From IMG/VR virus record IMGVR_UViG_3300019742_000001: a stretch of DNA of 64,000 nucleotides. One strand, given 5' to 3'. The number at the start of each line of letters is the position of its first letter. Position 1 is the stretch's first letter. The stretch is from a virus (taxonomy: Duplodnaviria > Caudoviricetes). Shown here piece after piece: positions 18,555 through 61,951 of this stretch. Under the pieces are notes generated by a model that did no database searches, was not told where the DNA came from, and saw only the letters and a list, made by a program, of their open reading frames with translations. Position numbers and translations under genes: made by a program.

Positions 18555-18598
18555 TAATAACCCTTCTGTTTTTTATAAATAAGACAGAAGGGTTATTA
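18555..18598. terminator. 15-bp perfect inverted repeat whose loop holds a TATAAATA late promoter
   Basis: taataacccttctgt (18555-18569) / acagaagggttatta (18584-18598). Confidence 0.7.
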
Positions 18599-20096: not shown

Positions 20097-20097
20097 T

Positions 20098-30120: not shown

Positions 30121-30349
30121 ACAAAATAAATTCAATAAAGGTGATAGAGTCGTATGTGTTGAAGATTACCTCCCATACAGTGGATGTTTTCTTGAAGAAG
30201 GATCAGTGTATGTAGTTGATATCGTTGATGAATTTGGTTTTGTTGGATTAAAAGGTGTAGATGAAGAAGGTGTTACTTGTTGGTCAGATAGTAGATTTGA
30301 CTTATATTTACCGCCAAATAATTTTAATGAGGATTTATTTATTATATGA
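30110..30349 (+). CDS. KOW/SH3-like small protein with DxLF tail
   Basis: KFNKGDRVVC...WSDSRFDLY, ends NFNEDLFII. Confidence 0.6.
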   Translation: MKIRQNKFNKGDRVVCVEDYLPYSGCFLEEGSVYVVDIVDEFGFVGLKGVDEEGVTCWSDSRFDLYLPPNNFNEDLFII

Positions 30350-44858: not shown

Positions 44859-45251
44859 TTATACCTCAAAGAGATTATCGTCAAAGGATGATTTCAAGTA
44901 AGTATCAACTTTATTACATACATCAACAGGAGCGTTACGTCGAGTATTGGTTATGTAATCAATGAAGTCATATTTATTTTCGGATGAATTTAAGTTTCTA
45001 ACGAATACCCCTCTCATGATATAGGCAACAGGTTTGATAAATTCCATTTCAAAGTGATGGAATGGGTCACCAAATTCATAAATATCGTATCCATGACCAA
45101 AACTATCATGTCCAAGTCGAATGAATCTGTTATCAGGTGACAGAGAAGTGATCATATAAGGAGGTTCACCATATCGGTCAAGGTGTTCTTTGGCATTTTG
45201 TGTTCTACCTGTCAATACTTGAACATAGTCACCTACTTTAAATGGATTCAT
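44859..45251 (-). CDS. KOW-like protein with DxLF tail
   Basis: MNPFKVGDYV, ends SFDDNLFEV. Confidence 0.65.
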   Translation of the reverse strand: MNPFKVGDYVQVLTGRTQNAKEHLDRYGEPPYMITSLSPDNRFIRLGHDSFGHGYDIYEFGDPFHHFEMEFIKPVAYIMRGVFVRNLNSSENKYDFIDYITNTRRNAPVDVCNKVDTYLKSSFDDNLFEV

Positions 45252-45253
45252 AG

Positions 45254-45580
45254 TTATACCTCAAACAGATCATTGTCAAGAAATTGTGGTTTAGTGATTA
45301 CAATGAAGCCATAGTCAACTTTCTGTTTATATTTCTGACAGTACATCATTAGTATTTCCATATCATTATCTAGTTTAATGGCGTATACAGTATCACGACT
45401 GAATTCATGTTGACTACTGTTAATAATAACACCAGTTAGTCCAACCAAATTTTCAGAGTCACTATACCCACTAACATAGTTTTTCAATTGAAGTTTGTTA
45501 GCCATGTCTTGGTATGTTGAGTAGCATTTACCAGTATCAACAATTTCAACATGGTCACCAATTTGTGGATCTTTATTCAT
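45254..45580 (-). CDS. Array family D protein
   Basis: PQIGD.V.I...G..Y.TY..MA.KL.L, ends FLDNDLFEV. Confidence 0.7.
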   Translation of the reverse strand: MNKDPQIGDHVEIVDTGKCYSTYQDMANKLQLKNYVSGYSDSENLVGLTGVIINSSQHEFSRDTVYAIKLDNDMEILMMYCQKYKQKVDYGFIVITKPQFLDNDLFEV

Positions 45581-45582
45581 AG

Positions 45583-45858
45583 TTACACCTCAAATAATTT
45601 ATCATCGGTGAAGTCATTGATATTATATCGTTGACCTTTCCAAGTGTTATAGTTTTCGTTACGGCATTCAATAGGTACGTAATTTTCGATATACTGAATA
45701 TGGTCATTCCAAAATGGTTTGATCATAGGATGTGCGTGTAACAGTGCTTCATCATATCGACCACGTAATAATAATTCAGTACAAGAACCAGCAGGGATAC
45801 CGTGTTCTATCCACATATCAATAGCACTAACAATATTATCATCAACACATAGATTCAT
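45583..45858 (-). CDS. Helical phage protein with DxLF-like tail
   Basis: EHGIPAGS..., ends FTDDKLFEV. Confidence 0.65.
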   Translation of the reverse strand: MNLCVDDNIVSAIDMWIEHGIPAGSCTELLLRGRYDEALLHAHPMIKPFWNDHIQYIENYVPIECRNENYNTWKGQRYNINDFTDDKLFEV

Positions 45859-45860
45859 AG

Positions 45861-46112
45861 TTATACCTCAAATAAGTCATCATCAAAAAGAGGAGGTTGG
45901 ATATCCAATACCAGATCTTTATCACAATAATTGTTGTACCTGTCATCCGTCCACTTAACATTATATACGAATTGGCTATCTCCATCATTAATTGACGTAA
46001 TCTCACCAACAACATTTCCGTGTTTGCCGCCATATAATGGATTATTTGAAAGGTCACCATACTTACCACTAACATATCTTACTTTGTCACCTAATTTAAA
46101 CATAATTATCAT
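45861..46112 (-). CDS. Array family C protein
   Basis: Ends LFDDDLFEV. Confidence 0.7.
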   Translation of the reverse strand: MIIMFKLGDKVRYVSGKYGDLSNNPLYGGKHGNVVGEITSINDGDSQFVYNVKWTDDRYNNYCDKDLVLDIQPPLFDDDLFEV

Positions 46113-46456
46113 ACCTCAAAGAGATTATCATCAAAAAGATTGGGAGTTGAAGTGACAATGAAACCACGATTTTGTTCCCCATAAGTATACTCGTATCCGA
46201 TAATAATATCAATAGGATTATTATCATCAAGTATGAGTCTGACACCATATACCATTCTATTTTCTTCTTGTAGGTGTTTGCCTTTTGCGACGATCACTCC
46301 TACCATACCTTCTTTGATTATATCACTACCAACAACTTTCATAAAATTAAAATATTCCAATTTAAGATTGATAGCCATTTCAAAGTAGCTGGGATATATC
46401 TCACCAGAATTGGTAATTTTTACATTATCGCCAATTTGTGGTTCTCTGTCAGTCAT
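46109..46456 (-). CDS. Array family D protein
   Basis: RGFIVTSTPNLFDDNLFEV. Confidence 0.7.
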   Translation of the reverse strand: MTDREPQIGDNVKITNSGEIYPSYFEMAINLKLEYFNFMKVVGSDIIKEGMVGVIVAKGKHLQEENRMVYGVRLILDDNNPIDIIIGYEYTYGEQNRGFIVTSTPNLFDDNLFEV

Positions 46457-46458
46457 AA

Positions 46459-46758
46459 TTATACCTCAAATAGTGAGTCATCTAATATATTGGGAGTTGA
46501 AGTGACAATGAAACCACGATCTGATTCATCTGCACTGTAACCCATTAAAATATCAGTACCATTTTGTAATCGTATACCGTAAATTAACTTTCCTGTATCA
46601 GATCCAGAAATAACACCAATTTCTCCGTTCTTGGTGGTTAAATTAGATATGTAATTGGTAAGATTCAGTTTATCAGCCATTAATTGGTAAGTGGTATATT
46701 GTCTGCCATTGTTGGTGATTTTGACACTATCACCAATTTGTGGGAAATTTGTATTCAT
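46459..46758 (-). CDS. Array family D protein
   Basis: RGFIVTSTPNILDDSLFEV. Confidence 0.7.
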   Translation of the reverse strand: MNTNFPQIGDSVKITNNGRQYTTYQLMADKLNLTNYISNLTTKNGEIGVISGSDTGKLIYGIRLQNGTDILMGYSADESDRGFIVTSTPNILDDSLFEV

Positions 46759-46760
46759 AA

Positions 46761-47015
46761 TTATACCTTACCCTTTGCCATAGATTTGAAACCTTCACTA
46801 ATTAATTTCATCCGTGATGGTGTGTAATTACTGCAACCGAAGTCGTGATTAATACTTGATGGGTGTGTTTCAACTCTATCCATCAATGTAATTTTTTCAC
46901 CTTCTACTGGGCAATGAGTGATTTTGGTTTGTTGGTGATTACATTTAACAAGTTTACTGTCAAACATATTCCGACTTAACCATTTACAATCTTTACAAAA
47001 TATTTTTGGTTCCAT
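46761..47015 (-). CDS. Cys-containing small protein, first gene of the array operon
   Basis: CKDCKW...C...N....C. It ends KGKV but keeps the AGGTATAA junction. Confidence 0.65.
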   Translation of the reverse strand: MEPKIFCKDCKWLSRNMFDSKLVKCNHQQTKITHCPVEGEKITLMDRVETHPSSINHDFGCSNYTPSRMKLISEGFKSMAKGKV

Positions 47016-47070
47016 AGATGTGCCTTTCTATTTGGTTATGGATAGATATTACAGTAGGTGGTATGATGAG

Positions 47071-47325
47071 TCAAGAGTTAAATGTATATGTATCAGGTAG
47101 TTGATCAGTGATGGGTTGGTCATCTTTGTAATGCCATAGTAATTGGAATCCTTCTGAGGTTAGAAAAATCCCCTCCAAGACGATAATACCAGCATGTGTT
47201 AATTTATGGCAATTTGGACATAGGAGGCAGATATTCGATTTAGAATTATCGCCCCCTTTTGACCTACTCTGTATGTGGTGTTTGTCCAATAGTGCTGGAG
47301 TGTTGCATATTTGACAAGGTTTCAT
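47071..47325 (-). CDS. Small HNH endonuclease
   Basis: CQIC...KHHIQSRSKGG.N..SNICLLCPNCHKLTH. Confidence 0.88.
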   Translation of the reverse strand: MKPCQICNTPALLDKHHIQSRSKGGDNSKSNICLLCPNCHKLTHAGIIVLEGIFLTSEGFQLLWHYKDDQPITDQLPDTYTFNS

Positions 47326-47360
47326 TAAGATATTATAGTATGTGTGTCACTTAATGTCAA

Positions 47361-48170
47361 TTACTCGTTAATCATTTCGTCTAATAGTTTTGTTTTAACC
47401 ACACTGGTATAGATATCATATCCAACAAGTATAGAGTTACCATCTGTCCAACATTCTCTATCATCATTCTTTGGTAATGCACCACCAGCAACGATTAGCT
47501 TGAATTTATAAGGTTTGAGTATTTCGTTCAACATTTCGGAACATGATTTATCGTGATCAACCATATATGTCAACAATTGATTTGATGTTTTATTAAAGAA
47601 TTCTATTCTGGCATCACTATTCATATTTGCCCACATTTCATCGATACGCATAACAGAATCTCTAAGAGTATTCCAATCTTTGGCAATGTATTTCTTTTCA
47701 CCTATGAGTCTATTATATAGTTCAGACAGTTCATAGTTAACATCAGCAATAGTGGTATAATATCCTTTGAAACTATCCCAGAAATCACTAGCAGGGCATA
47801 ATCCAATAGAAGAATTATCATAAGGTAGTACAAGGTATCGTTCATCCATAGTGCCATATGCCCCATCAAGACTACTTGAGCATATAAGTGATTGACTTCT
47901 TTTAGGAAATTTAGACCATTGTTTTGAGTTATCTATCCATAGAGTATAATGATTATCAGTATTTGCTGATTTTCTATTGAATTTGGATGGTTCAACATAA
48001 CCGAAGTCACTACGAATAGACACATGACCTCTAAATAGACCTTGTTTATCTTCTGTGAATCGTCTCCATGCTTTACGACAGTTTTTCTTGATGATTTGTG
48101 CTGCTTCATCCATGTTAACGACTTTGGTTCTACCTTCTTTTGATTCTGATATAAACGATTGTAATCTCAT
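47361..48170 (-). CDS. ADP-ribosyltransferase-like protein (subfamily 2) with CTS leader
   Basis: MRLQSFISE; LFRG, RKSANTDNHYTL, SLICSS, RECW; TATAAATA at 48201. Confidence 0.55.
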   Translation of the reverse strand: MRLQSFISESKEGRTKVVNMDEAAQIIKKNCRKAWRRFTEDKQGLFRGHVSIRSDFGYVEPSKFNRKSANTDNHYTLWIDNSKQWSKFPKRSQSLICSSSLDGAYGTMDERYLVLPYDNSSIGLCPASDFWDSFKGYYTTIADVNYELSELYNRLIGEKKYIAKDWNTLRDSVMRIDEMWANMNSDARIEFFNKTSNQLLTYMVDHDKSCSEMLNEILKPYKFKLIVAGGALPKNDDRECWTDGNSILVGYDIYTSVVKTKLLDEMINE

Positions 48171-48256
48171 TGAATAATATTCTCCTGTGTGGTATACTAT
48201 TATTTATATTTACAGTGATAATTTATGGTGTTATATTATAGGAAAAGGGGGTATAT

Positions 48257-48535
48257 ATGTCGTTCAAAGAGGGTGATAGTGTTAGGTTACTTCTGTGTAA
48301 AGATATGAATGTATCTTTACGTACTGAGTGGGCTGAGTGGTGGAAGAAAAACAAAAATACAGTATTCACTTTATCGGAATATCGGACAAATGGTAATTGG
48401 TTTATGAAATATCCTAATGGTGATACTGTGTATAATCTACGTGGTGGTGGTGATGACCCAATAACATTTAATCATACAGAGATATATGTATGTAATCCAC
48501 CTATTAAATGGGAAGAGGATTTATTTGAGATATGA
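48257..48535 (+). CDS. KOW-like protein with DxLF tail
   Basis: MSFKEGDSVRL, ends WEEDLFEI. Confidence 0.65.
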   Translation: MSFKEGDSVRLLLCKDMNVSLRTEWAEWWKKNKNTVFTLSEYRTNGNWFMKYPNGDTVYNLRGGGDDPITFNHTEIYVCNPPIKWEEDLFEI

Positions 48536-48888
48536 TTAAATATTATGCACTAAATGATGATAATATAGCAGTTGAGTGTAATATGGAGTATGCACTACTT
48601 TGTGGTACAGAGGATCTTGTTAGTAATATCATTCAACAAACAGATGTTAGTGATGGTTTGATGGTATCAACAATATTCTTGGGAATGGATCATTGTTTTG
48701 GTGGTAGTGAATCAACACCTTTGTTGTTTGAGACAATGTTGATGGGTAACACAGAAGAGGAAGAAGTATGTGTTAGATATGAAACATATGTTCAAGCAGT
48801 GGAAGGTCATTGGAATATGGTCAAAAGATATGGTGGTTCAAAACCAGTGTCGTTACCATTGTTAGATGATAATCTGTTTATCTTATAG
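48532..48888 (+). CDS. Conserved phage protein with DxLF tail
   Basis: VSTIFLGMDH..LLFETM..RYETY..A.EGH, ends LLDDNLFIL. Confidence 0.65.
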   Translation: MIKYYALNDDNIAVECNMEYALLCGTEDLVSNIIQQTDVSDGLMVSTIFLGMDHCFGGSESTPLLFETMLMGNTEEEEVCVRYETYVQAVEGHWNMVKRYGGSKPVSLPLLDDNLFIL

Positions 48889-49143
48889 GGTGAACAGATC
48901 ATCTTTGAAATGATTTGGTTGGTATTCACATAGATCAGTACAGTCATCTTTATCTAAGAATTGGTTTACCACATCCCATGTCATTTTATGTGTAATATTA
49001 TCATCTAATGAGACAAACTCAATATGTTGTCGTATACAATCATTCATTACGCACACCCATATAATGGGATCGTTAACTTCTGCCGAGTCAATCTCAATAT
49101 ATTGTTGTCCTCTAATAAAGTCTTTTGCCTTAGTCATTTTCAT
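48883..49143 (-). CDS. Hypothetical protein with DxLF tail
   Basis: Ends HFKDDLFTL, tail-to-tail with 48532. Confidence 0.6.
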   Translation of the reverse strand: MKMTKAKDFIRGQQYIEIDSAEVNDPIIWVCVMNDCIRQHIEFVSLDDNITHKMTWDVVNQFLDKDDCTDLCEYQPNHFKDDLFTL

Positions 49144-49544
49144 GATGGATTCGTAATCATTGAATATAGAGTTAGTTTCTTGGTTAGTTTTATTCCCATC
49201 TTATTAAGAAGAATAGACCATATAATAGAAGAAATTGAAATTACATTACTTGACCATACATATACAACAGGAAGACCAATGCCATAAATTGATACTGACA
49301 AAATGAGTAATATGATTAATATAGCAACAACCATAACATTGAGATACCAAGTAGCAGAGAAGTTCAATACTTTCACTAAGTCACGATGAACAGTAAGTTC
49401 TTGTTCTCGTTCATATATCAGTTGTCTAGGCACATCTTGTCTTATCTTTGACAACACTCGTGCGGCATCAGTATAATCATTATCCATACCATGTAGAAAT
49501 ATTTTTTCACATTCTTTCATCATTTTTCTTTCGGATCTTGTCAT
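49140..49544 (-). CDS. Membrane protein
   Basis: Two C-terminal TM segments, TTGACA promoter near 49605. Confidence 0.6.
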   Translation of the reverse strand: MTRSERKMMKECEKIFLHGMDNDYTDAARVLSKIRQDVPRQLIYEREQELTVHRDLVKVLNFSATWYLNVMVVAILIILLILSVSIYGIGLPVVYVWSSNVISISSIIWSILLNKMGIKLTKKLTLYSMITNPS

Positions 49545-49647
49545 TCGTATATCCCTTTCCAGATTTTAGTTAAGATGATAGTATCATAGGTGTAAGTGAG
49601 TGTCAAATATTATAAATATAACTGAAACCAAAATATATGGAGAATAT

Positions 49648-50631
49648 ATGAGATTTGAAGATTTACTATTGAATGAGAAGGCAATGACACCGAAACAGGC
49701 TATCAAGTTTGCTACTGATACTGATTATAATAATATATCAAGTGCGTCAGAGAAAGAGTTCATTGAGACATGGAAAATGATAACCAAGGAGTGTAAAGGT
49801 TTCATTCGTGAATTGAGGAAAGGTGATCAATTATTGTTTAGAGGTATGAAAAACATAGACAATATGGGTAGCAGAGTACCGAGGAAGAATCGTAGACCTT
49901 TGGATACACCAACCGCAGTAAGTGACAAAGCCGATGAAATAATATTAGAGTTATTTGGATGGAAACCGAGACAAGAGGGTTTATTCACAACAGGAAATAC
50001 ATTGTTTGCTGGTGGGTATGGTGATATTTGCATGGTCTTTCCGGTAGACAAGTATGATATACTATGGAGTTCAAAGACAACTGATGCATATTCCAAATTA
50101 AGAGATAGGTCAATTGGTGATTACATTAGGAAGAACTACACAAAAGAATTGAAGACAATGTATGATAAAAAATTTGCTGAGGGACATGAGGGTGTGTATC
50201 GGATAAGAGATAAAGGATATAATGTACCACTCCAAAAGAAATATAGGATTAAAAAAGCTGCAATCAAGTATTATGTTGATTATATTAAACAAAGTAACTT
50301 GATTCAAGGGGATGTAGAAGAGTTCGTAAAAGATAATATATATTGGGACCCAGAGAGGTCATTTGATGGTTTCCTTAATTGGGTAAGACATGGGTATTTT
50401 CTTGATGAAGGTAGGAAGTCGTGGCCAGAAGGATTTGATAAATTATTCAGTGATGCTGTTGAGAAGATGGTAATTGATGAACTTGATTATAATGATAAAG
50501 ATTTAAGAAAGGCGATACAATCAGGTAATGAGATTCAAGTAAAGTGTGACAAATACTATTACATTGGACTGGAATGTATGCCATTAGTTGAATTATGTTT
50601 ATGGGGTAAGACGATAAGGAGTGAAATTTAA
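49648..50631 (+). CDS. ADP-ribosyltransferase-like protein (subfamily 1) with CTS leader
   Basis: Start MRFEDLLLNE (GGAG SD, TATAAATA 49611); LLFRG, GLFTTG...GYG, NEIQVKC. Confidence 0.55.
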   Translation: MRFEDLLLNEKAMTPKQAIKFATDTDYNNISSASEKEFIETWKMITKECKGFIRELRKGDQLLFRGMKNIDNMGSRVPRKNRRPLDTPTAVSDKADEIILELFGWKPRQEGLFTTGNTLFAGGYGDICMVFPVDKYDILWSSKTTDAYSKLRDRSIGDYIRKNYTKELKTMYDKKFAEGHEGVYRIRDKGYNVPLQKKYRIKKAAIKYYVDYIKQSNLIQGDVEEFVKDNIYWDPERSFDGFLNWVRHGYFLDEGRKSWPEGFDKLFSDAVEKMVIDELDYNDKDLRKAIQSGNEIQVKCDKYYYIGLECMPLVELCLWGKTIRSEI

Positions 50632-51281
50632 TGAGATTACAACAATACATAACAGAAGGTGTTAGTGTAAAATATGATGACATATATGATATAATACCAC
50701 TAATAAAACGTGATTGTAAGAAGTGGATTAATGAAAGTAACGGACAGTTTGCGTTTAGAGGTATGAAAAACAAACCATTATTTATTAAACATGACGTAAG
50801 GAAAAACAGAAAACCAAAAGATACATCAAAGTCCCAACATGAATTGATGGATAACGTGATGAATGACAAATTTGGATGGCATCCTCGTTCTGAGGGTTTG
50901 TTTTGTTCGGGTGATATGATGTCAACAACTGATTATGGTGTTCCATACATGATATTTCCTATAGGTGATTATAGATATGTATGGAACCCAAAAGTTAAAG
51001 ATAGTTTTCTTGATACTTCTAACTTTTCATCATGGTGGGTCCAATTACTGAGTATTGCTATCGAAGATAAATTCTTAAATAAATTTATTATGGAAAAATC
51101 AACTAAAAAAATGTTGAAGGGGTACATTGATACTGGATTAAGTAACGCATTAAGACGAGATAATGAGGTAATGGTCGAATGTAAAGAGTATTATGCTATA
51201 CGAGCAGAATCCATACATAGTGTATATAATGATGACGCTCCATATGCATCATTCACAGACTTTTTGGTGGATATATCATGA
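50631..51281 (+). CDS. ADP-ribosyltransferase-like protein (subfamily 1) with CTS leader
   Basis: MRLQQYITE; AFRG, GLFCSG...YG, NEVMVEC. Confidence 0.55.
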   Translation: MRLQQYITEGVSVKYDDIYDIIPLIKRDCKKWINESNGQFAFRGMKNKPLFIKHDVRKNRKPKDTSKSQHELMDNVMNDKFGWHPRSEGLFCSGDMMSTTDYGVPYMIFPIGDYRYVWNPKVKDSFLDTSNFSSWWVQLLSIAIEDKFLNKFIMEKSTKKMLKGYIDTGLSNALRRDNEVMVECKEYYAIRAESIHSVYNDDAPYASFTDFLVDIS

Positions 51282-51874
51282 GATTACAACAATACATAAC
51301 AGAGAAGGCATCAAAGAACACCATTGTATGTGATGTTCAACCAATGTATGAACAATATCAGTCATTTGAGACATATGAGTTCACTGAATTCCTTAATACT
51401 CAAACTAAACAAGTTATGTATTATTTCAATGGACCTGATACTGTTGGTACTGATACAGAGAGTGATATCAAATACTGGTTGATTGAGAATGGATTGAATG
51501 AGGAAAAACTCAATGATATCACATTCTTTGATAAGGGGTATGCATATTTCCGATCATTTATGGATGAAGGTATATCCGAACATACAATAATCAAGATGAT
51601 TAGATATATGTTCAAGACAAGACAATGGGATTCACGTGATATAGAAAATGAAGAGTGGGAGAAGGCATTGGGTAGTGACTATGATAGTGATGTTGAACAT
51701 ATGTTAGACAGTGGTGATATGATTTATCCACCTGATATTGATATTCGTCAACTAAGGCAACACGGTGGAGGGTATATCGTAGGTGGTGGTAAGAGAGAAT
51801 GTTTGGCAGAACTTCAATTATTGATGTCTGCGTTTAATATAAAAGCAAGAGAAATTAAAAGATATGTATATTAG
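51278..51874 (+). CDS. CTS-leader protein, possible isochorismatase/cysteine-hydrolase fold
   Basis: MRLQQYITE; TIVCDVQP, DKGY, YIVGGGKRECL. Confidence 0.4.
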   Translation: MRLQQYITEKASKNTIVCDVQPMYEQYQSFETYEFTEFLNTQTKQVMYYFNGPDTVGTDTESDIKYWLIENGLNEEKLNDITFFDKGYAYFRSFMDEGISEHTIIKMIRYMFKTRQWDSRDIENEEWEKALGSDYDSDVEHMLDSGDMIYPPDIDIRQLRQHGGGYIVGGGKRECLAELQLLMSAFNIKAREIKRYVY

Positions 51875-51883
51875 GAGATTATA

Positions 51884-52600
51884 ATGGTAAATTTAAAAGG
51901 TGCTTATGTTACAAAAGATGTGAAATTGGATAGATTACCCGATTTCGATGAAAGAAGTAAAAACTTTCCTATCAGAGAGTTGTCTGGTTCAAAGAAACAA
52001 CGGTCATACACTTGGCGTTGTAATGAACAATTAGATCAAGGACCAGATGGTGCATGTGTTGGGTTTGGTGTTGCACATGAGTTAATCGCAAGACCAGCAG
52101 AAGTTAAAGGTATCACTGACACTTATGCAAAACAGAATATCTATTGGGAAGCACAGAAGATTGATCCTTGGGATGGTGGTAGTTATCCCGGTGCATCACC
52201 ATTTTATGAAGGAACAAGTGTTCTTGCTGGTGTTAAAGTAGTTCATAAAATGGGTTGGATTGATTCATATCGTTGGGCATTTGGATTGGAAGACTTGATT
52301 CTTGGTGTTGGTCATAATGGTCCAGCCGTTATTGGTGTTGGATGGCACGGCAACATGTTTCAACCTGATTCAGATGGTTACATTCACGCATCAGGTGGTA
52401 TCTATGGTGGTCACTGTGTATTAGTAAATGCAGTTAATGTTAAGAAACAACGATTTACTATTCATAACTCATGGGGTAAATCATGGGGTATGAATGGTGA
52501 GTGTTATATTTCATTTGAAGATATGGGTAAACTATTGGCAGATCGGGGAGAAGCAGTATTCTTCTTAAAACGTCATAACAAAAAACAACCACAAATATAA
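51884..52600 (+). CDS. Papain-like (C1) cysteine peptidase
   Basis: LDQG..GACVGF (Q/C), GGHCVL (H), HNSWG.SWGMNG (N). Confidence 0.88.
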   Translation: MVNLKGAYVTKDVKLDRLPDFDERSKNFPIRELSGSKKQRSYTWRCNEQLDQGPDGACVGFGVAHELIARPAEVKGITDTYAKQNIYWEAQKIDPWDGGSYPGASPFYEGTSVLAGVKVVHKMGWIDSYRWAFGLEDLILGVGHNGPAVIGVGWHGNMFQPDSDGYIHASGGIYGGHCVLVNAVNVKKQRFTIHNSWGKSWGMNGECYISFEDMGKLLADRGEAVFFLKRHNKKQPQI

Positions 52601-52623
52601 TTAAAGTATGGAGGAATAATAGT

Positions 52624-53520
52624 ATGAGATTGGATCATTTTTTGGTGGAAGGTAGATCAAAATCACTAAAATTACAACAATTCAGAGATGAACTTGGTAG
52701 TGGGAAATATTCCGATGTATTAAAGTATTATAAAAGTTTGGATGATCCCACATCAGGGTTTATATACAGAGGTAATCGGTCATCCGATACATTGGCTGTT
52801 GTAGACCCTAAGACATCAACTAGGACTAGTCAAAACACAGATAATTATTACACTCTTTTTATTGATAATGATCCATCGTGGTCTAAATTCCCTAAAAGGA
52901 GTAAGTCACTAATCTGTACAACTGATTACTCAAAATCAATATTATATGGTAATGGTTATGTAATGTTCCCTGTTAACGGATCGGATATAGGAATTTGTCC
53001 AAAGGGAGATATATGGGGTAGTTTTAAGGGGTTAGAGTCTAGTGGGGGTAATGATGGGTTTTTGGCATTACTTTTTGAGTCATTTAACGATATGTTTACT
53101 GTTATTAACAAAAGCGGGGAGATAAAAGAATGTTTTAATGAAGATTTTTCTATAGAGTCTCTTGTGAATAGTATGCTTAGCAGATCTAAGCCAACTAAAC
53201 ATAAAACTTATGATGATGACATTGGAACATTTAAGAAACAACTGAAATATCTCGACCAACACATCAAAAAGAACGGACCAGATATATATTTGGGGTATCT
53301 ACCTCTGATTGATAAGTTGTTTAATACATTTTACAAAGGTGATATGTATAAGTGTATATCTGATATACTTGATCCCAAAAGAAGTGGGTTTAAGTTACAA
53401 AAGGTTGGCAAAAAACTACCAACCAATGGACATGAAGTATGGACTGATGGTAAATGTTTAATGATGGATGTTCATCTTTTTGGTCAATTACATGATTCAG
53501 GTGAATTGTATGATTTGTAA
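52624..53520 (+). CDS. ADP-ribosyltransferase-like protein (subfamily 2) with CTS leader
   Basis: MRLDHFLVE; IYRG, RTSQNTDNYYTL, SLICTT...YG, HEVW. Confidence 0.55.
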   Translation: MRLDHFLVEGRSKSLKLQQFRDELGSGKYSDVLKYYKSLDDPTSGFIYRGNRSSDTLAVVDPKTSTRTSQNTDNYYTLFIDNDPSWSKFPKRSKSLICTTDYSKSILYGNGYVMFPVNGSDIGICPKGDIWGSFKGLESSGGNDGFLALLFESFNDMFTVINKSGEIKECFNEDFSIESLVNSMLSRSKPTKHKTYDDDIGTFKKQLKYLDQHIKKNGPDIYLGYLPLIDKLFNTFYKGDMYKCISDILDPKRSGFKLQKVGKKLPTNGHEVWTDGKCLMMDVHLFGQLHDSGELYDL

Positions 53521-53547
53521 AGAAATCACTAAAGAGGGTGGAAGTAT

Positions 53548-54387
53548 ATGAAATTACAGAGATATTTAATAGAAGGTCGTACCCAGAGTCTACCAAAAGA
53601 TGAATTCGAAAAACTGTTGAGAACTGACTATAGAGATTCTGTTATGTCAGTAATCAATGGAAAAGGGATGTTGTTTCGTGGTAACAAAGATACTCCACAA
53701 TATGGATATGTTGATACTTCAAAGGGGAAACTTAGACGATCTGCAAATACAAGTAATGAATATACACTGTGTATTGATAATTCGTCAAGGTGGAAGAATT
53801 ACCCTCGACGTGGTAGATCATTAATATGTTCCACCAGTTTATTATATGCTATTAATTATGGTCATCTTAATATTGTATTACCTATCAATGGATCATCTAT
53901 AGGTATATGTTCTGATGACGATTTTTGGTATAGTTTCCCATATATAGAGAAAGTGTTGCATATTAGAGATATGGATTCATTCAATAGTGAATTCAGGGAT
54001 CTATTACGTTGGGGTACAGGTAATAGAACCAATGATAAAAATTGGGCACAACTTAGATCGGCAATGAAAGAATTTGATAAGAAATTTGAGAATTATAATT
54101 ATGACTGGGACAATGTGTTTTCTGAAATATATTCGGGGATTAATTATACAAAATCTGCTTCTGCATGGGATGACGCATGGAAGGGTAGTTTACAAAAAAC
54201 TATCAATGATATAATAGATCCTGTAAATAATGAATTCAAGTTAGTCAATATTGGTGACCAGTTTGATGATGATTGTGAAGCATGGTTTAGTGGTAAATCA
54301 CTTGTTATCAATACTAACTATTTTGGTGACAAAGGTGAATATGAAAAAACATTGAATTATTTGATGTCAGTTATGGAGGGACATTAG
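53548..54387 (+). CDS. ADP-ribosyltransferase-like protein (subfamily 2) with CTS leader
   Basis: MKLQRYLIE; LFRG, RRSANTSNEYTL, SLICSTS..A.NYG, CEAW. Confidence 0.55.
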   Translation: MKLQRYLIEGRTQSLPKDEFEKLLRTDYRDSVMSVINGKGMLFRGNKDTPQYGYVDTSKGKLRRSANTSNEYTLCIDNSSRWKNYPRRGRSLICSTSLLYAINYGHLNIVLPINGSSIGICSDDDFWYSFPYIEKVLHIRDMDSFNSEFRDLLRWGTGNRTNDKNWAQLRSAMKEFDKKFENYNYDWDNVFSEIYSGINYTKSASAWDDAWKGSLQKTINDIIDPVNNEFKLVNIGDQFDDDCEAWFSGKSLVINTNYFGDKGEYEKTLNYLMSVMEGH

Positions 54388-54391
54388 GTTT

Positions 54392-54973
54392 ATGAAATTA
54401 CAGAGATATATAAATGAAATGGGGTTTGATGAGGAACAGGATTTATGGCAAAAAGAGATCTTGCCCAAACTTGAAAAGGATTGTAAACCATTCCTCAAAG
54501 AAAAGACATTACTTTATAGAGGTTTTGGTAGAAGATTTGATTTCGAATTTATCATACCTCGTAAGGATAGAAGACCATTGGATAGCCCACAGTGGTTCCA
54601 TGATGGTTTCGATAATGCATCTAAAAAAGTGTTTGGTTGGAAGTCGAGATCAGAGGGAGTCTTTGCATCATCTACATATTCAACAGCTAGTGCTTATGCT
54701 GGTAGTGGTACAGTGGCAATGGTATTCCCTAAAGGTAAATTCAAGTATATCTGGTCATCAAAGATCAATGATTTATTTGATGAACTCAATGATGAAGATT
54801 TCTCAATATTTGATGATGAAACTGCGTGGGTTCAATTCGTAAAACAGAACTACCAAGATAATAATTTAAGATCGGTTCGCAACGAAAACACAGAGATTAT
54901 GTTGTATTGTCCTAATGGATATTACGCGGTGGATGTGGCGTTTGATGAGGCTGTAAAAAAGGTGTTATTATGA
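54392..54973 (+). CDS. ADP-ribosyltransferase-like protein (subfamily 1) with CTS leader
   Basis: MKLQRYINE; LLYRG, GVFASS...ASAYA, TEIMLYC. Confidence 0.55.
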   Translation: MKLQRYINEMGFDEEQDLWQKEILPKLEKDCKPFLKEKTLLYRGFGRRFDFEFIIPRKDRRPLDSPQWFHDGFDNASKKVFGWKSRSEGVFASSTYSTASAYAGSGTVAMVFPKGKFKYIWSSKINDLFDELNDEDFSIFDDETAWVQFVKQNYQDNNLRSVRNENTEIMLYCPNGYYAVDVAFDEAVKKVLL

Positions 54974-55710
54974 GATTAGAATCGTATATAGATAGTAGTG
55001 ATATAACATATGAACAGTATGTATCAGGTATTGACTCATATTTCTCAGTGGATGAGGGTTTCAAAGAGGTCAAGGATAAGTCGGTTGCATTTGTTAAGAG
55101 ACAATTGAAGATGGCATCAGATGAATTTGATAAGATATCACATGAACTAGGGTTGTCATTGATTCAGATATCACATGCATTAACGGAAAAGAATGTGTTC
55201 AAGTTACTGAAATCAATAGGGTTTTCTTTCGTGAAACTTTTATCATCATTAAATGGATTATCAGGTATAGTTCGTCAAGGTCTGTTTGATGCATTTGAAG
55301 AATTATCCAAAACACAACTATGGATGAAGTTCAAGTCTGGTGTTGCTGCATGGGATGATATACTTGACCGATATCCAGTGATGAAAAAAGTAACTGGTGT
55401 GTTAGTCGCAGGTCTTTTGTTTTTCATGTGGACACAAATGACATTCATTGGAAATCTTGACTATGATTTTGATTTCACCTCAATTGCGTTGGCATTGAAA
55501 GGGAAATACTCACTGGAACAAATATTTGGTGGTCCTGAAGGTGCAATGTTATTGACACTGTTCGCTAGTGGATCATTAATTAGTGTTGCTTGGTTGGGTG
55601 AAACTGTATACAACCTGATCTTGGCATTGGTTTACACAGGTTCCAAGAAATTGTCAACTGTTGACCATAAGGTGGTTAACATAATCAAATCAAAAATGGT
55701 ATTCGAATGA
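54970..55710 (+). CDS. CTS-like-leader protein with hydrophobic helical C-terminal half
   Basis: MRLESYIDS; TM-like VTGVLVAGLLFFMW, AMLLTLFASGSLISVAW, VYNLILALVY. Confidence 0.6.
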   Translation: MRLESYIDSSDITYEQYVSGIDSYFSVDEGFKEVKDKSVAFVKRQLKMASDEFDKISHELGLSLIQISHALTEKNVFKLLKSIGFSFVKLLSSLNGLSGIVRQGLFDAFEELSKTQLWMKFKSGVAAWDDILDRYPVMKKVTGVLVAGLLFFMWTQMTFIGNLDYDFDFTSIALALKGKYSLEQIFGGPEGAMLLTLFASGSLISVAWLGETVYNLILALVYTGSKKLSTVDHKVVNIIKSKMVFE

Positions 55711-56543
55711 GATTAGAACAGTATATTATCAACGAGAGTTCAAGATCAAAACCTTTGGACAAAGAAACGTTCGAAGAATTGTTGAGAACTGATTATAGTG
55801 ATGCTGCTAAGGCATTAGTCAAAAATGCCAGTAGTAGATTGTATCGTGGTAACTATGATCTTGCAAGATATGCCTTAACCGACCCTACCAAGGGAAGGTT
55901 ACGGAGATCATCTAACACATCAAATGAGTATACTCTGTTTATGGATAACAACAAGATATGGAATGAGTATCCTAATCGTGGTCGTTCCATTATATGTTCA
56001 ACCGATATGTTATCATCAGAACAGTATGGTGATAATGGGTTGGTTATCCCAATGAATGGCACACTACTTGGTCAATGTAATGAGTTTGATTTGTGGTCAT
56101 CATTCAAAGTATTGGAGAAATCACTTGATGTCGAGGATATGGATGATTTTAATCACACGTTACGTTTTCTAATTGGTGTAGGAAATGATACTAATTGGCG
56201 TACGTTACGTAAATCATTTACAACATTTGACAAGAAGCTAAAAGAGGGTGGTTGGGAATCGATATACAATGATATCATTACCAAGACTAAATATCAAAAG
56301 GAATATGCTCGTGAACTGGTTAGTAGGTGGGAGAAAATATGGAAGGGTTCTATGATGAAGACAATGGAATATCTATTAGATCCAAAGACTAACAAGTTTA
56401 AATTAAAGAAATCAGGTGACAAATTTGAACCAAATCGTGAGGTATGGGTTGGCGGTAAGGCGTTATATGTATCACTTGATTATCTTGACGCTACATCGGG
56501 TGATAAACACACAATCGATTATATAAAGAGGGTTATATCATGA
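55707..56543 (+). CDS. ADP-ribosyltransferase-like protein (subfamily 2) with CTS leader
   Basis: MRLEQYIINE; LYRG, RRSSNTSNEYTL, SIICST...YG, REVW. Confidence 0.55.
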   Translation: MRLEQYIINESSRSKPLDKETFEELLRTDYSDAAKALVKNASSRLYRGNYDLARYALTDPTKGRLRRSSNTSNEYTLFMDNNKIWNEYPNRGRSIICSTDMLSSEQYGDNGLVIPMNGTLLGQCNEFDLWSSFKVLEKSLDVEDMDDFNHTLRFLIGVGNDTNWRTLRKSFTTFDKKLKEGGWESIYNDIITKTKYQKEYARELVSRWEKIWKGSMMKTMEYLLDPKTNKFKLKKSGDKFEPNREVWVGGKALYVSLDYLDATSGDKHTIDYIKRVIS

Positions 56544-56986
56544 AATTATGTCAATACTTAATAGAATCCAATAGATTGAAGGTATACTTCGCACATCCAC
56601 GGGCAACGTATGGTAAACCAGAGGAAACAAAATGTATTAAAATGATAACTGACAAATTCCCTGAACATATCATTGTCACACCTAATAACAGTAATATCAT
56701 AGATCGTGCCAATAAGATGGGGTTTGATATATTCTTTGGGATTATTAATACAACACAGATAATGTGTGTTATGCCATTCAAAGATGGGATCATAGGTAAT
56801 GGCGCGTATCGTGAGTGTGAACATGCTAGTAAGAAGGGGATACCGATATTTGTTGTAAATCCTTGGAATAATACTATTACTGTAACACCATTTCATAAGT
56901 TGAAGGGTATCAGTCCAGAAGAAACGTTTGGTCGTATTGACAAAAAAGATCAACATAAATGGAAGGTACATGAGACAAGTGTATAA
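56540..56986 (+). CDS. Nucleoside 2-deoxyribosyltransferase/TIR-like Rossmann protein with CTS leader
   Basis: MKLCQYLIE; KVYFAHP...IG.GAY.E.E.A.KKGIPIF. Confidence 0.55.
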   Translation: MKLCQYLIESNRLKVYFAHPRATYGKPEETKCIKMITDKFPEHIIVTPNNSNIIDRANKMGFDIFFGIINTTQIMCVMPFKDGIIGNGAYRECEHASKKGIPIFVVNPWNNTITVTPFHKLKGISPEETFGRIDKKDQHKWKVHETSV

Positions 56987-57029
56987 ATAGTTAAAGATCA
57001 AATAAAATTTAATTTATGTGGAGAAATAT

Positions 57030-58466
57030 ATGAAGAACATGTTTGAACAAATTGAAAGGGCACAATCAGCAGTAGATCGTGTTGATGAAAGTGGTATTAA
57101 GAATATTAGAATGTGGGCAAAAAAGTATAAAGAAGCCGAAGGTTATTATCATATGGATACAGATGGTGTTACATCAGCTATCGCAATGAAAGCCTATCTT
57201 GAGGCGTATGGTATTAAAACAGTGGCAGTTCATAAGATTAACTATGGTTCCAATGAGTTCTCGGCAGTTAAGGCAAAGAAAGGTCGTTTGGTGTGGATGG
57301 TTGACTTTGCACACGGTAAACCTTTCCTTCATATTCATACTGATCATCATGACGCACAAACAGGTGATGCAGAAACTACTTCAACCGCATTTGAGAAAGC
57401 TCCTTCTAACGTACAAGCAATCAGTCAGAAGATTAGTCCAAGAGATTTATTCTCTGCGGAAGACATCAAGGTTATTTCGATGGTTGATACTGCCGACTTC
57501 GCTAAGAATGATATCACACCTGATCAAGTAATGAACGCAGCATTCGGATATGACAAAACATTGAATGTTGACCGTAATCACACTATGATGGGATTGGTTG
57601 TTAACAAACTCTTATTGGCATACAAGAATAAGAAAGGTTTCCTTGATAAATTGGTGTTACAAGCAAAACCTTCATTAATCAGCCTGTATACTGTTATCAA
57701 GAAAGTGGCAAAAGAAGAAAATTATAAGACACCAGCAGAAGTTGGTAGTGGTGTTGAAAACTACGTATCAGCACAGAAAGGTAAGATCATTGAACCAGAT
57801 ATTGATCCTAGTAAACTTAAAGGTGGACAGTCTACAATGTGGGGTTCAACTATCGTACAATACGGTGGTGGTGGTATGTTCAATGGTTATGACCGTTATA
57901 CACCATTCAAGAATAATCCAACAGCAGACTATTTGATCATTGCATGGCCTATGGGATTGGTTCAAGCATCAAAGAATCCATTCAAAGGTGGTAGTAATCC
58001 TCATCCATTAGGTGATTTGGCTATCAAGAAATTGTTAGGTAACAGTAAATGGAAGTCACGTCTAAGTAAAGTGAATGTATCGTTAGCTGAGATCAAGAGA
58101 ATCTTTGAAATGGATATCAAACCAGCAGATCGTGATGCTATGGGATTCAATTTTGAAGACTTTGCTTCGTTGGTTACCAAAGATCAAGTTAAAGGTATGG
58201 ATATAGAGGGTAATAGTGGTTACACTGGATTCATTAAATCACTGGCTAACGTAAAATTCAGTCAGTTGTCATACAAACAGAAACAAAACTTAGAGAAAGT
58301 CACTGTATCTGTATATGACATCATGGTTGCACAGTCTGGTGGTCATAGAGATATCACAAATGTTCAAGGTTTTAATTTTTTGGGTAAAGGATATGTTGAT
58401 ATAATGAAGGAGTTTATGAAAGATCTTGCTCTTGAGTTGAAAGACAAACGATTGGAGAAAAAATAA
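57030..58466 (+). CDS. DHH-family phosphoesterase
   Basis: HMDTDG, VDFAH, TDHHD, VDTADF, SGGH; TATAAATA at 56982. Confidence 0.75.
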   Translation: MKNMFEQIERAQSAVDRVDESGIKNIRMWAKKYKEAEGYYHMDTDGVTSAIAMKAYLEAYGIKTVAVHKINYGSNEFSAVKAKKGRLVWMVDFAHGKPFLHIHTDHHDAQTGDAETTSTAFEKAPSNVQAISQKISPRDLFSAEDIKVISMVDTADFAKNDITPDQVMNAAFGYDKTLNVDRNHTMMGLVVNKLLLAYKNKKGFLDKLVLQAKPSLISLYTVIKKVAKEENYKTPAEVGSGVENYVSAQKGKIIEPDIDPSKLKGGQSTMWGSTIVQYGGGGMFNGYDRYTPFKNNPTADYLIIAWPMGLVQASKNPFKGGSNPHPLGDLAIKKLLGNSKWKSRLSKVNVSLAEIKRIFEMDIKPADRDAMGFNFEDFASLVTKDQVKGMDIEGNSGYTGFIKSLANVKFSQLSYKQKQNLEKVTVSVYDIMVAQSGGHRDITNVQGFNFLGKGYVDIMKEFMKDLALELKDKRLEKK

Positions 58467-58979: not shown

Positions 58980-60494
58980 ATGACACTAAAAGATGAATAC
59001 GAAAAACTAAAATTAAACCCTGTTCTGACTGAGGTAGAAGGTATTGACTCTGATCCAGAAGGGGAAGAGACACCAGAGGTTGAATTAGTTGAAGGATTTA
59101 ACGTACTTATACTGACATCATCAACTGACTCAAAGAATAACAGAATGTCTAAGAAAAATCCAACTGTTGTTAAAATGGAGAATTGGTGTAAATCAAACGA
59201 TGTTCCTTATTACACGGCATTTGCTGACACAGCAATTTTAAGTGTGAACGATGGTGAGATCCGTATTCATAATATTAACGACACCGATGGATGTGTCATT
59301 GATCGTGATAAGACATTTGTTATCGCTCGTCGTGGTGTTATGTTCCATAGATATTCACTTAACCTAATGTCTCGTTTGGAGAGATATCGTTTCTGTTTCC
59401 TTAATGAACGTGTCGCTCTTGAGACATGTGAAGACAAATACTTAACAAACCTTAACCTTATTGAATCTAAGGTACCTATCCCTGATTCACATTTGGTGCC
59501 AACTGAGGAAATGATTACACTTGCTCACGAAAAAGTTGGTGGTAAATTCCCTATCGTGGTCAAGACATTGAATGGTACTCAAGGTAAAGGAGTGTTCATT
59601 GTCAACAATTACAAGGCATTGAAGTCAACACTACAGGCTATTTGGTCTGTTGGTGGTGATGTGGAAATGATGTTCCAACAATATATCAAGTCAGAATATG
59701 ATGTTAGAATACACGTACTTGGTGATGAAGTAATTGGTGCAATGAAAAGAACAGTAGTTGATAATGACTTCCGTTCTAATGTTCATTTAGGTGGTAAGAC
59801 CAGTAAATACAAACCATCCAAAGAAATTAAAGAGTTGGCTGTTAAAGCCGCTCAGGCTGTTAAATGTAAATGGGCTGGTGTTGATATTATGTTTGATTCT
59901 AAAGATAATCCATATGTATTGGAAGTTAATGCTTCAGCAGGTACAGATGGTATTGAAGATCTAACTGGTATTGATATTGTTGGTAATGTGATGGAGTTTT
60001 GCAAAAATGGTATCAATTGGAATAGACCACCTCAACAGGTAGGTGTGGTTGAAACTATGGAAATTGATGGTATTGGTGAATTAATAGCTCGGTTTGATAC
60101 TGGTAATGACGCTAATAGCTCCTCACTTGACGCACAAGACATTAAAATCAATGGAACCAAGGTTACGTGGAAGACTAACGGTAAAACTCTCACAGGGTCA
60201 ATCATTGGTAACGTACGTATGAAGAATAATCACGATCCAGATGAAAAACTTGATGCAAAACGTCCTATCGTATTATTGGATGTTACGTTCCAAGGTGTTA
60301 CTTATAAAGATGTTCCGTTTAATCTTAATAATAGAAGCAATAAAAAAACACCTATTTTGATCAATAAGAACTTTATGATCCAATCTGGTTCTGTTGTTAA
60401 TCCATCTAAAATTTATAGTGTAACATCAAAACCTGACTATTTAAAAAAGAAAAGAAAGAAAATAGTAAAAAAAGAAGAAAGAGACGAAAATTAA
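58980..60494 (+). CDS. rimK: RimK-like ATP-grasp ligase fused to a retropepsin-like (RimK-associated) protease
   Basis: FPIVVKTLNGTQGKGV, QQYI...YDVRIHV, FRSNVHLGG, GVDI, VLEVN; ARFDTGN and PILI.KNFM. Confidence 0.85.
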   Translation: MTLKDEYEKLKLNPVLTEVEGIDSDPEGEETPEVELVEGFNVLILTSSTDSKNNRMSKKNPTVVKMENWCKSNDVPYYTAFADTAILSVNDGEIRIHNINDTDGCVIDRDKTFVIARRGVMFHRYSLNLMSRLERYRFCFLNERVALETCEDKYLTNLNLIESKVPIPDSHLVPTEEMITLAHEKVGGKFPIVVKTLNGTQGKGVFIVNNYKALKSTLQAIWSVGGDVEMMFQQYIKSEYDVRIHVLGDEVIGAMKRTVVDNDFRSNVHLGGKTSKYKPSKEIKELAVKAAQAVKCKWAGVDIMFDSKDNPYVLEVNASAGTDGIEDLTGIDIVGNVMEFCKNGINWNRPPQQVGVVETMEIDGIGELIARFDTGNDANSSSLDAQDIKINGTKVTWKTNGKTLTGSIIGNVRMKNNHDPDEKLDAKRPIVLLDVTFQGVTYKDVPFNLNNRSNKKTPILINKNFMIQSGSVVNPSKIYSVTSKPDYLKKKRKKIVKKEERDEN

Positions 60495-61093: not shown

Positions 61094-61951
61094 CTAACCT
61101 TTCCGTTTCCATTCTAATTCAAATGGTAGTTCTAAGCATTGAAATCCCGATGCATTTTTATGTCCACCACCACCAAGTGATTTTGCAATTGATCCTACAT
61201 CAACACCATTCTTGGTAGAATACATTGACACTGAATAATTCTTATTTGTGTAACCAAAACATAACATTGCATCGTGTTTGGATGGATCAAATTTAGAATC
61301 AAATATCTTTGAGTTACTACCAAGTGCATTGATAGCCAGAAAACGATATCCTTTCCAATCCAATTCAAATGAATGTGATTTGCAGTTGTTGTAGTTAATA
61401 TTGTCGTGGTAATTACAACATAGTTGACCCTCTTTAATGAGTTCATCCAAATGATCGTCACTTGTTAAATGAGTTTTCCAGAATGTGTCACTGTTAGAAT
61501 CAACACCATACAATGTTAATGCGGATTGTAATGGAAACAATTTATCACTGTATTTGATATCCCATACATCATAACGACCAATTAATCGTACAATCTCTGG
61601 CATCTTCTCATCACTGAAATATTCCCATGTTAACTCACACCCAGCATCACCAATTCGTTGAGTTCCATTGATCTTTTGACCTGATTTCTTGAGGTCATCA
61701 ATAGCAGTTTTGTGGTGATCAATCCAGATGAAATTATCACCCTTCATTTTCTTGATCTTTAACATTTCTTTGAATGGTTGTAATCCAAAGTCTGTCATAT
61801 ACACTTTTCGTGCCTGTTTGATCTTGTTCCACGGTATATCATAACCGTAGTTCATGTGGTGAATAGTAACATTCTCCTCAAAGTGTTTTACAATTGCACC
61901 TGAACACCATCCGTCACTATCCGTGTGCGTGATACATAGTACATCAATCAT
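61094..61951 (-). CDS. DHH/DHHA1 phosphoesterase (NrnA-like)
   Basis: HTDSDG, MTDFG, WIDHHKTA, GGGGHKNASGF. Confidence 0.88.
   Translation of the reverse strand: MIDVLCITHTDSDGWCSGAIVKHFEENVTIHHMNYGYDIPWNKIKQARKVYMTDFGLQPFKEMLKIKKMKGDNFIWIDHHKTAIDDLKKSGQKINGTQRIGDAGCELTWEYFSDEKMPEIVRLIGRYDVWDIKYSDKLFPLQSALTLYGVDSNSDTFWKTHLTSDDHLDELIKEGQLCCNYHDNINYNNCKSHSFELDWKGYRFLAINALGSNSKIFDSKFDPSKHDAMLCFGYTNKNYSVSMYSTKNGVDVGSIAKSLGGGGHKNASGFQCLELPFELEWKRKG

Follow-up and report, generated by a model that had tools for sequence, protein, structure and literature searches.

The window analysed here comprises 64,000 nucleotides (nt) of the IMG/VR record IMGVR_UViG_3300019742_000001, part of an approximately 239-kb metagenomic jumbo-phage contig with a G+C content of approximately 34%, and encodes a set of eight paralogous proteins for which an earlier reading of the letters alone (hereafter the sequence-only reading) had proposed an ADP-ribosyltransferase (ART)-like function and carriage in the virion. 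Identical sequence is present in several microbial-mat metagenomes. A megablast search with the locus recovered no close DNA relative among deposited phage genomes, and a scan of IMG/VR recovered no relative of the locus.

All eight open reading frames (ORFs) that had been singled out as paralogs are present at the positions proposed for them and can be aligned with one another. Searching every stop-to-stop frame of the 64 kb with a hidden Markov model (HMM) of the family returned exactly these eight and none further; the eight were themselves part of the HMM seed, so that the informative part of this result is the absence of extra copies. The division into two subfamilies also held, each with its own PHROG matches and with residue-by-residue agreement with the motifs proposed for it. 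Subfamily 1, which matches phrog_11975/15932, consists of the ORFs at 20098–21108 (+ strand; 336 amino acids (aa), with a long acidic insert and an isoelectric point (pI) of 4.4), 49648–50631 (+; 327 aa, counted from the ATG at 49648), 50631–51281 (+; 216 aa) and 54392–54973 (+; 193 aa, the minimal form). Subfamily 2, which matches phrog_12810, consists of the ORFs at 47361–48170 (− strand; 269 aa, in a minus-strand transcription unit of its own), 52624–53520 (+; 298 aa), 53548–54387 (+; 279 aa) and 55707–56543 (+; 278 aa). Hereafter, each ORF is referred to by its lower coordinate. PHROG cross-hits connect the two subfamilies, and 50631 bridges them through an additional weak match to phrog_12810. 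The three PHROGs are all annotated as "unknown function", and searches of the eight proteins against Pfam and NCBIfam gave no match. Across the set, lengths range from 193 to 336 aa and pI values from 4.4 to 8.8. The alignment of the eight sequences contains the invariant columns RG, R, D, R, YG, P, and W, and a late Glu also lines up in one column when further sequences are included. In a FastTree phylogeny, most of the window paralogs are nearer to proteins of other phages than to one another, which suggests that the duplications may be old; the branches are 1 to 3 substitutions per site long and support values were not taken into account, and we make no strong claim on this point.

The family extends far beyond the window. 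Word-indexed searches returned only about 10 relatives per query; an exhaustive profile search over 1.84 billion cluster representatives returned 9,965 proteins at E ≤ 0.001, and 2,057 at E ≤ 1e-30. Most members are 240 to 300 aa long, and the family is very large, unnamed, and mostly viral. Multi-copy homologs were identified by tblastn in Agrobacterium phage Atu_ph07, Ralstonia phage RsoM2USA, Salicola phage SCTP-2, and two uncultured huge phages. Counted over whole records, the family profile matches 13 times in Atu_ph07, 4 times in RsoM2USA, 10 times in SCTP-2, 18 times in the uncultured phage LR756508, and twice in LR756502, and at this profile sensitivity no family member was found in RaK2, 121Q, XacN1, or T4. 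The sequence-only reading knew of no characterised phage with eight such paralogs; for this family, that was wrong, given the copy numbers of Atu_ph07, SCTP-2, and LR756508, and eight copies are ordinary. ARTs of other families have likewise been reported in numbers, with at least 10 in Bacillus phage G (PMC9503650).

In some relatives, the domain seems to be present in tandem fused copies; Atu_ph07 gp54 has two. Several relatives of 490 to 1,086 aa contain two or three matched stretches, and in at least two of them one domain copy is split by an insert; the metagenomic protein P0022, with a predicted length of 2,645 aa, contains seven stretches that match the family profile. Among ten longer or multi-copy members, no informative fused domain was found in Pfam. 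A Foldseek search of the AlphaFold DB (AFDB) clusters also gave confident structural relatives among uncharacterised UniProt entries, with E-values to 1e-12 and template modelling (TM) scores to 0.78. Since AlphaFold DB holds proteins of cellular organisms, the family may extend beyond viruses.

To the fold, we turned with one AlphaFold model per subfamily: 53548 for subfamily 2, built on an alignment of 141 sequences (predicted local distance difference test (pLDDT) 94, predicted TM score (pTM) 0.90), and 54392 for subfamily 1, built on an alignment of 146 sequences (pLDDT 92, pTM 0.85). Both models contain six core strands and one extra hairpin strand. In 53548, the core strands span residues 43–46, 91–95, 106–112, 117–120, 244–248, and 250–255, and the hairpin strand spans residues 52–56. 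The models were compared with 48,161 PDB representative chains in an exhaustive VIA structure search, of which the best 50 rows were considered. For 53548, the highest-ranking chains were BC2332 (Z 5.7 over 124 residues), Arr (Z 5.4), and diphtheria toxin (Z 4.6), with exotoxin A, AvrPphF ORF2, tankyrase, PARP16, cholix, DarT, CteC, Tpt1, and others further down, and about 28 of the 50 rows are ART-superfamily entries. For 54392, BC2332 again ranked first (Z 6.6 over 130 residues), followed by Arr (Z 5.2), a PE-like toxin (Z 5.2), diphtheria toxin (Z 4.8), and cholix (Z 4.8); judged by entry titles, 14 of the top 16 rows and about 38 of the 50 belong to the ART superfamily. Scabin, too, is among the ART-superfamily matches. 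BC2332 stands inside the ADP-ribosylation superfamily in SCOP (PMC3000352) and has been linked to the diphtheria-toxin active site by template matching (PMC3024214). A shape search of the ESM-Atlas with 54392 returned DUF2441 (TM 0.53/0.60 over 139 residues), then ART-PolyVal, RNA 2'-phosphotransferase (PTS_2-RNA), and Arr-ms, and with 53548 it returned DRAT, ART-PolyVal, ART/ADPrib_exo_Tox, and Scabin-like domains. The ART clan of Pfam includes DUF2441 (PMC7955679). The ART-like split-sheet fold implied by the sequence-only reading is thus supported for one member of each subfamily, each confident model retrieving mostly ART chains.

Conservation was counted over the 141-sequence alignment (53548 numbering), the members of which share only 15% to 45% identity. 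Strand 1 (43–46) carries [YF]43 (128/141), R44, which is the Arg of the [YF]RG motif (132/141), and G45 (136/141); C94 (123/141) lies on strand 2, [ST]95 (128/141) at the end of that strand (91–95), followed by a helix (98–102); and E244, present in all 141 sequences, opens strand 5 (244–248). In addition, R63, R88, and D125 are each conserved in 141 of 141 sequences and D77 in 132, and Y104/G105 and P112 are invariant or nearly so. All conserved positions are retained in the eight window copies, and the model of 54392 places the conserved Arg, Ser/Thr, and Glu on the same strands. The Arg, the Ser/Thr-bearing strand, and the late Glu, which the sequence-only reading had described as conserved, are therefore indeed kept family-wide. 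At the end of strand 2, where R-S-E ARTs have an S-T-S motif before a helix, the family consensus is C94-[ST]95-[TGSN]96; a literal S-T-S occurs in 53548 only, and 47361 has S-S-S. The ART core is a split sheet to which strands 1, 2, and 5 contribute the catalytic residues (PMC7955679). The conserved residues may form a single pocket for nicotinamide adenine dinucleotide (NAD). In the VIA alignment, residues 35–184 of the 54392 model pair with residues 13–166 of the diphtheria toxin chain, which would put R43 and E168 of 54392 at about diphtheria toxin residues 21 and 148, an approximate placement; we take these two to be the catalytic His and Glu of the toxin. The variable inserts that had been noted between the motifs also proved real: depending on the paralog, about 45 to 190 residues, largely helical, separate strand 4 from strand 5. 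In known ARTs, the target-recognition loop lies between these two strands.

The paralogs begin with a short leader of a pattern like M-[KR]-L-Q-x-Y-[IL]-x-E. An example is the nine-residue MKLQRYLIE of 53548 (53548–53574, +), which has an [LI]-x-E ending and is modelled as disordered; the first ten residues have a pLDDT of approximately 52 in both models. Of the 141 family members, 129 retain M1 and 138 retain E9. A strict search pattern, M-[KR]-[LF]-x-x-[YFL]-[ILV]-x(1-2)-E, was found on 13 ORFs of the window, namely seven of the paralogs and six unrelated proteins (12780, 13863, 18616, the Zeta-toxin-like kinase 19176, 51278, and 56540), and looser versions were found on the remaining paralog, 20098 (MSKLSKFVSE), and on the unrelated 54970 (MRLESYIDS). 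The virion-targeting-like leaders attributed to all eight paralogs are thus present, one of them in a looser form, and they extend to unrelated proteins, bringing the leader-tagged ORFs of the window to 15, of which seven are unrelated to the family. The T4 internal proteins IPII and IPIII start with MKTYQEFIAE, which has the same [LI]-x-E ending, and the T4 internal proteins share only their capsid-targeting sequence (PMC3012670). The Atu_ph07 paralogs bear a leader version of their own, M[RK]W-x-Q-L-[TN]-E, which is what a phage-specific targeting and cleavage signal would predict.

Evidence from virions is available for Atu_ph07. In this phage, family members are contiguous, AUZ94865–AUZ94875, which correspond to gp53–gp63 when numbering starts from gp1 = AUZ94813, an assignment with which the molecular weights agree. 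All 11 of them were found in Atu_ph07 virions by mass spectrometry, with 3 to 31 unique peptides each (Table S5, PMC6102473), and the phage encodes a T4 gp21-like prohead protease (Table S3, PMC6102473). The published virion identification of RsoM2USA covers the ten most abundant bands only and is uninformative for the family. More generally, it has been argued that ARTs are commonly packaged into the virions of myoviruses (PMC9503650). We consider it likely that the paralogs are packaged into the head. The virion-carried ARTs proposed by the sequence-only reading are thus partly supported, the virion location by the Atu_ph07 homologs and the portable leader, and the link to ARTs by the predicted fold and the conserved residues on strands 1, 2, and 5, with no profile match.

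Packaging would also be expected of non-catalytic proteins, that is, of internal head, ejection, or DNA-organising pseudoenzymes, the paralogs of which would fill or structure a large capsid. Jumbo phages commonly have families of paralogous head proteins, the 11 homologs of Atu_ph07 are all components of the virion, the 15 leader-tagged ORFs of the window, seven of them from outside the family, suggest a substantial internal protein cargo, and no sequence link to active ARTs was detected. However, at six positions a charged or polar residue is retained by 128 to 141 of the 141 sequences despite the low overall identity, and the conserved positions lie on the strands that bear the catalytic residues of ARTs, a pattern that looks like an active site and not like filler. 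A purely structural role for the paralogs is accordingly an unlikely explanation in our judgement.

Several observations weigh against the reading of these proteins as packaged ARTs. The Atu_ph07 preparation was purified with polyethylene glycol, and some of the proteins detected in it could be contaminants. At the sequence level, Pfam searches of the 141 members with E-values up to 1 gave no ART family and no recurrent family, NCBIfam gave no match to the family, and HMM searches of PDB sequences with full-length and core-only profiles gave only spurious coiled-coil or weak matches. In hhalign comparisons with T4 ModA and ModB, the alignments were insignificant (probability of 3% or less), although one run, at 3% probability, paired the two YRG motifs. 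At the structural level, a Foldseek search of the PDB gave nothing with an E-value below 0.07, and all VIA Z-scores are below 8, a range that, according to the warning of the tool, possibly reflects a mere common arrangement. Furthermore, the family lacks an ExE/QxE motif, position 242, two residues before E244, being a mix in the 141 sequences of D (31), N (27), G (26), K (14), R (12), and E (11), and several ART-fold families are not transferases.

These Z-scores, the empty Foldseek search of the PDB, and the lack of profile-level similarity would fit a misleading resemblance, in which the family is unrelated to ARTs and the order R...S/T...E is a coincidence. Yet the models of both subfamilies retrieve almost only ART-superfamily entries among the 48,161 chains, a second engine with a second library gives ART families as well, and both the order of the strands and the places of the conserved residues on them fit the published description of the ART core (PMC7955679). 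Foldseek, one of the checks proposed by the sequence-only reading, gave nothing significant in the PDB or in AFDB Swiss-Prot; ART families were returned by VIA and the ESM-Atlas. That two separately modelled subfamilies retrieve almost only ART chains is hard to explain by chance. We regard a coincidental resemblance as very improbable and conclude that the core of the family, as modelled, very probably has the ART fold.

The more specific claim of the sequence-only reading, namely membership of the cholera-toxin-like R-S-E clade, was not supported. The family has no ExE/QxE motif, the hhalign comparisons with ModA and ModB were insignificant, and the nearest folds are not R-S-E toxins: Scabin, CteC, PltA, CARDS, and TccC3 have Z-scores of 2.4 to 3.0, against 4.5 to 6.6 for BC2332, Arr, and the diphtheria-toxin group. 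The family cannot be placed in the R-S-E clade because there is no sequence-profile link to known ARTs; strand 1 looks R-S-E-like, and the nearest folds are BC2332/DUF2441, Arr, and the diphtheria-toxin group.

The missing Arg-specific ExE signature also bears on the nature of the acceptor. Together with three conserved arginines (R63 and R88 in 141/141, R44 in 132/141) and with the presence of Tpt1 and DarT among the structural neighbours, it would suit enzymes that modify nucleic acids, either the DNA of the phage itself, inside the head or during entry, against restriction, or host DNA or RNA, and that resemble DarT, Tpt1, or pierisin rather than Alt. DarT and Tpt1, however, reach Z-scores of only 2.7 to 3.8, below those of Arr, BC2332, and the toxins, and the paralogs, with pI values from 4.4 to 8.8, are not uniformly basic. 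Modification of nucleic acids seems to us quite improbable as an account of these proteins.

The setting of the genes provides information on their probable expression. The window contains 12 copies of the motif TATAAATA, which we take to be the late-promoter box of T4, and 8 of the 12 lie 16 to 50 nt upstream of the start of an ORF on the same strand, a non-random placement when compared with a background of 4.8% (binomial P of about 1e-8). The copy at 18574–18581 (+) lies 34 nt upstream of the 18616–21108 unit, which consists, in this order, of a leader-tagged ORF, the Zeta-like kinase, and paralog 20098. On the minus strand, the copy at 48201–48208 lies 30 nt upstream of paralog 47361–48170. 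The copy at 49611–49618 (+) lies 29 nt upstream of the ATG at 49648 and heads the tightly packed 49648–56986 string. Judging by these copies, 29 to 34 nt upstream, all three of the transcription units that bear paralogs would be expressed late. A GTG at 49600 was rejected as the start of the first gene of the string; the ATG at 49648 is the most likely start because the motif occupies 49611–49618 and the leader begins at 49648. The motif was also found at 8105–8112, at the start of a minus-strand gene (2505–8105), the 1,866-aa product of which weakly matches PHROGs for baseplate hub/tail lysozyme and for tail fibres.

Besides the paralogs, the 49648–56986 unit contains unrelated proteins with leaders, namely 51278–51874 (+; leader MRLQQYITE), 54970–55710 (+; with the looser leader given above), and, as its last gene, 56540–56986 (+; 148 aa, leader MKLCQYLIE). 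A 238-aa protein encoded at 51884–52600 (+) matches the "peptidase" phrog_16701 (E 3.5e-56) and has no leader, although it lies inside the leader-tagged gene string. In the region 44859–49143, both strands carry many ORFs of approximately 80 to 135 aa that apparently belong to different families and have a common C-terminal tail, ...D-[DN]-[LK]-L-F-E-[VI] or L-F-[TI]-L, right at the stop codon.

The leader-tagged, Zeta-toxin-like P-loop kinase at 19176–20096 (+; Pfam Zeta_toxin, E 5e-5; phrog_5268) abuts paralog 20098 and also matches the kinase part of phrog_12810. Atu_ph07 gp53 is a fusion of the family domain with a Zeta-toxin kinase, the sole informative fusion found. This hints at a partnership with a P-loop kinase in at least one lineage of the family. 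NAD and uridine diphosphate N-acetylglucosamine (UDP-GlcNAc) are substrates of some kinases of the Zeta family, and the paralogs might be partners of such a kinase that act on NAD or a nucleotide sugar, as the fusion in gp53 and the gene order at 19176–20096 would allow. More broadly, the packaged proteins might be ART-fold enzymes with a chemistry other than ADP-ribosylation of macromolecules, such as NAD+ glycohydrolases or degraders or modifiers of NAD-derived immune signals, for which the absence of ExE and the position of the invariant R63, R88, and D125 outside the classical triad can be adduced; NADases with an ART fold exist (PMC9503650). Against this, 8 to 18 diverged paralogs with variable inserts are hard to reconcile with a single small-molecule reaction, and the link to the kinase involves only one or two copies per genome. 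On this evidence, we consider such alternative chemistries improbable.

The best available explanation, which we hold with about even confidence, is that the eight paralogs are packaged and injected ART-fold enzymes that act on NAD+. Under this explanation, the genes would be transcribed late from T4-type TATAAATA promoters, and the leader of approximately nine residues, ending in [LI]-x-E, would take the proteins into the assembling prohead, where a prohead protease of the T4 gp21 type would cut the leader off after its Glu. The mature proteins would then be kept in the head and ejected with the DNA, in the manner of T4 Alt and the T4 internal proteins. After entry, NAD+ would be bound by the conserved residues of strands 1 (Arg), 2 (Ser/Thr), and 5 (Glu), aided by R63, R88, and D125, and ADP-ribose would be transferred to host molecules ahead of any phage gene expression, with the variable helices that separate strands 4 and 5 possibly giving each paralog its own substrate. 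Leader cleavage, ejection, the use of NAD, transferase chemistry, and target diversity are the parts of this scheme that we infer. Taken singly, NAD-dependent transfer by the modelled family is in our view a balanced proposition, and the existence of paralog-specific targets is possible but rather doubtful.

A more far-reaching version, which we advance only tentatively, is that the family constitutes a previously unrecognised, very large ART clade for delivery from the capsid, in which the 4 to 18 leader-tagged paralogs per jumbo phage form an injected arsenal of enzymes. Their active site, R-[ST]-E with the invariant R63, R88, and D125 and lacking ExE, would then have a chemistry or acceptors different from the arginine ADP-ribosylation of the Alt type; nucleic acids and NAD-derived signals are examples of such acceptors, and a Zeta-type kinase might take part in some cases. 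The novelty lies in a very large family, orphan by sequence and with a predicted ART fold, for leader-mediated capsid delivery, unless it is already contained in the survey of PMC9503650.

Other genes of the window lie outside these transcription units. A full-length homolog of LpxC (UDP-3-O-acyl-GlcNAc deacetylase) is encoded at 30346–31149 (+; Pfam E 1e-88), which points to a Gram-negative host and a possible manipulation of lipid A synthesis. In the product of the gene at 58980–60494 (+), a RimK-like ATP-grasp domain is joined to a region that matches Pfam Zn_protease at a borderline score (24.2 bits, under the cut-off of 27 bits), and the product matches a PHROG annotated as "ribosomal protein S6 glutaminyl transferase"; DHH-family proteins are encoded on either side of the gene, at 57018–58466 and 61094–61951. 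Two minus-strand genes represent unusual phage cargo: the one at 31993–33054 encodes a protein of the RNA ligase family (Pfam E 1.9e-11), the one at 8616–9698 a PAS-GAF sensor-like protein.

Proteins that enter the cell with phage DNA act before phage genes do, at the stage at which host defences threaten the genome most. If the family is active, it would expand the number and diversity of known injected enzymes greatly, with thousands of clusters and up to 18 copies per genome, would explain what a block of "hypothetical" proteins in the virions of Atu_ph07-like jumbo phages does, and might yield new NAD-dependent modifiers with distinct specificities and new mechanisms of counter-defence. 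The idea is directly testable, since the cultured phages Atu_ph07, RsoM2USA, and SCTP-2 carry family members.

The best structural matches of the family, BC2332 (PDB 2AUA) and DUF2441 (PF10386), are, like the family itself, compact ART cores of unknown function. The likeness to DUF2441 is structural only, the DUF2441 HMM giving no match in the 141 members or in Atu_ph07 and control genomes; the DUF2441 atlas cluster behind the best match is 93% bacterial, and another DUF2441 atlas cluster is mostly viral. With the H-Y-E clade, that is, the diphtheria-toxin group, Arr, and PARP, the family shares the split-sheet core (Z 4.5 to 5.4) and no sequence similarity; these enzymes have His on strand 1 and Tyr on strand 2, whereas the family has Arg and Ser/Thr at the respective strands. 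ART-PolyVal domains, which are among the structural neighbours of the family, also have an ART fold and are predicted to be embedded in the virion and injected early (PMC9503650). They differ in that they sit in giant multidomain proteins, whereas the family members are mostly stand-alone, leader-tagged, and arranged in arrays, and the resemblance between the two is limited to TM scores of 0.25 to 0.49, with no HMM match.

The closest functional parallels come from T4, the Alt protein of which is the classic injected ART. Like the proteins encoded in the window, as proposed here, T4 Alt is an ART-fold protein of a myovirus head that is delivered with the DNA (PMC9503650), and T4 ModB carries LYRG, that is, an aromatic residue followed by Arg and Gly, on strand 1, as does the window family. 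T4 has three ARTs, Alt, ModA, and ModB, whereas the family has 8 to 18 copies per genome and lacks ExE; the comparison of the family with ModA and ModB by hhalign detected no sequence relationship, and its leader is of the IPII/IPIII type. The T4 internal proteins IPI, IPII, and IPIII bear, as in the window, a short leader ending in [LI]-x-E on otherwise unrelated proteins. However, these T4 proteins are small and are described as a diverse set of defence proteins (PMC3012670), whereas the window paralogs combine an enzyme-like predicted fold with an invariant putative active site.

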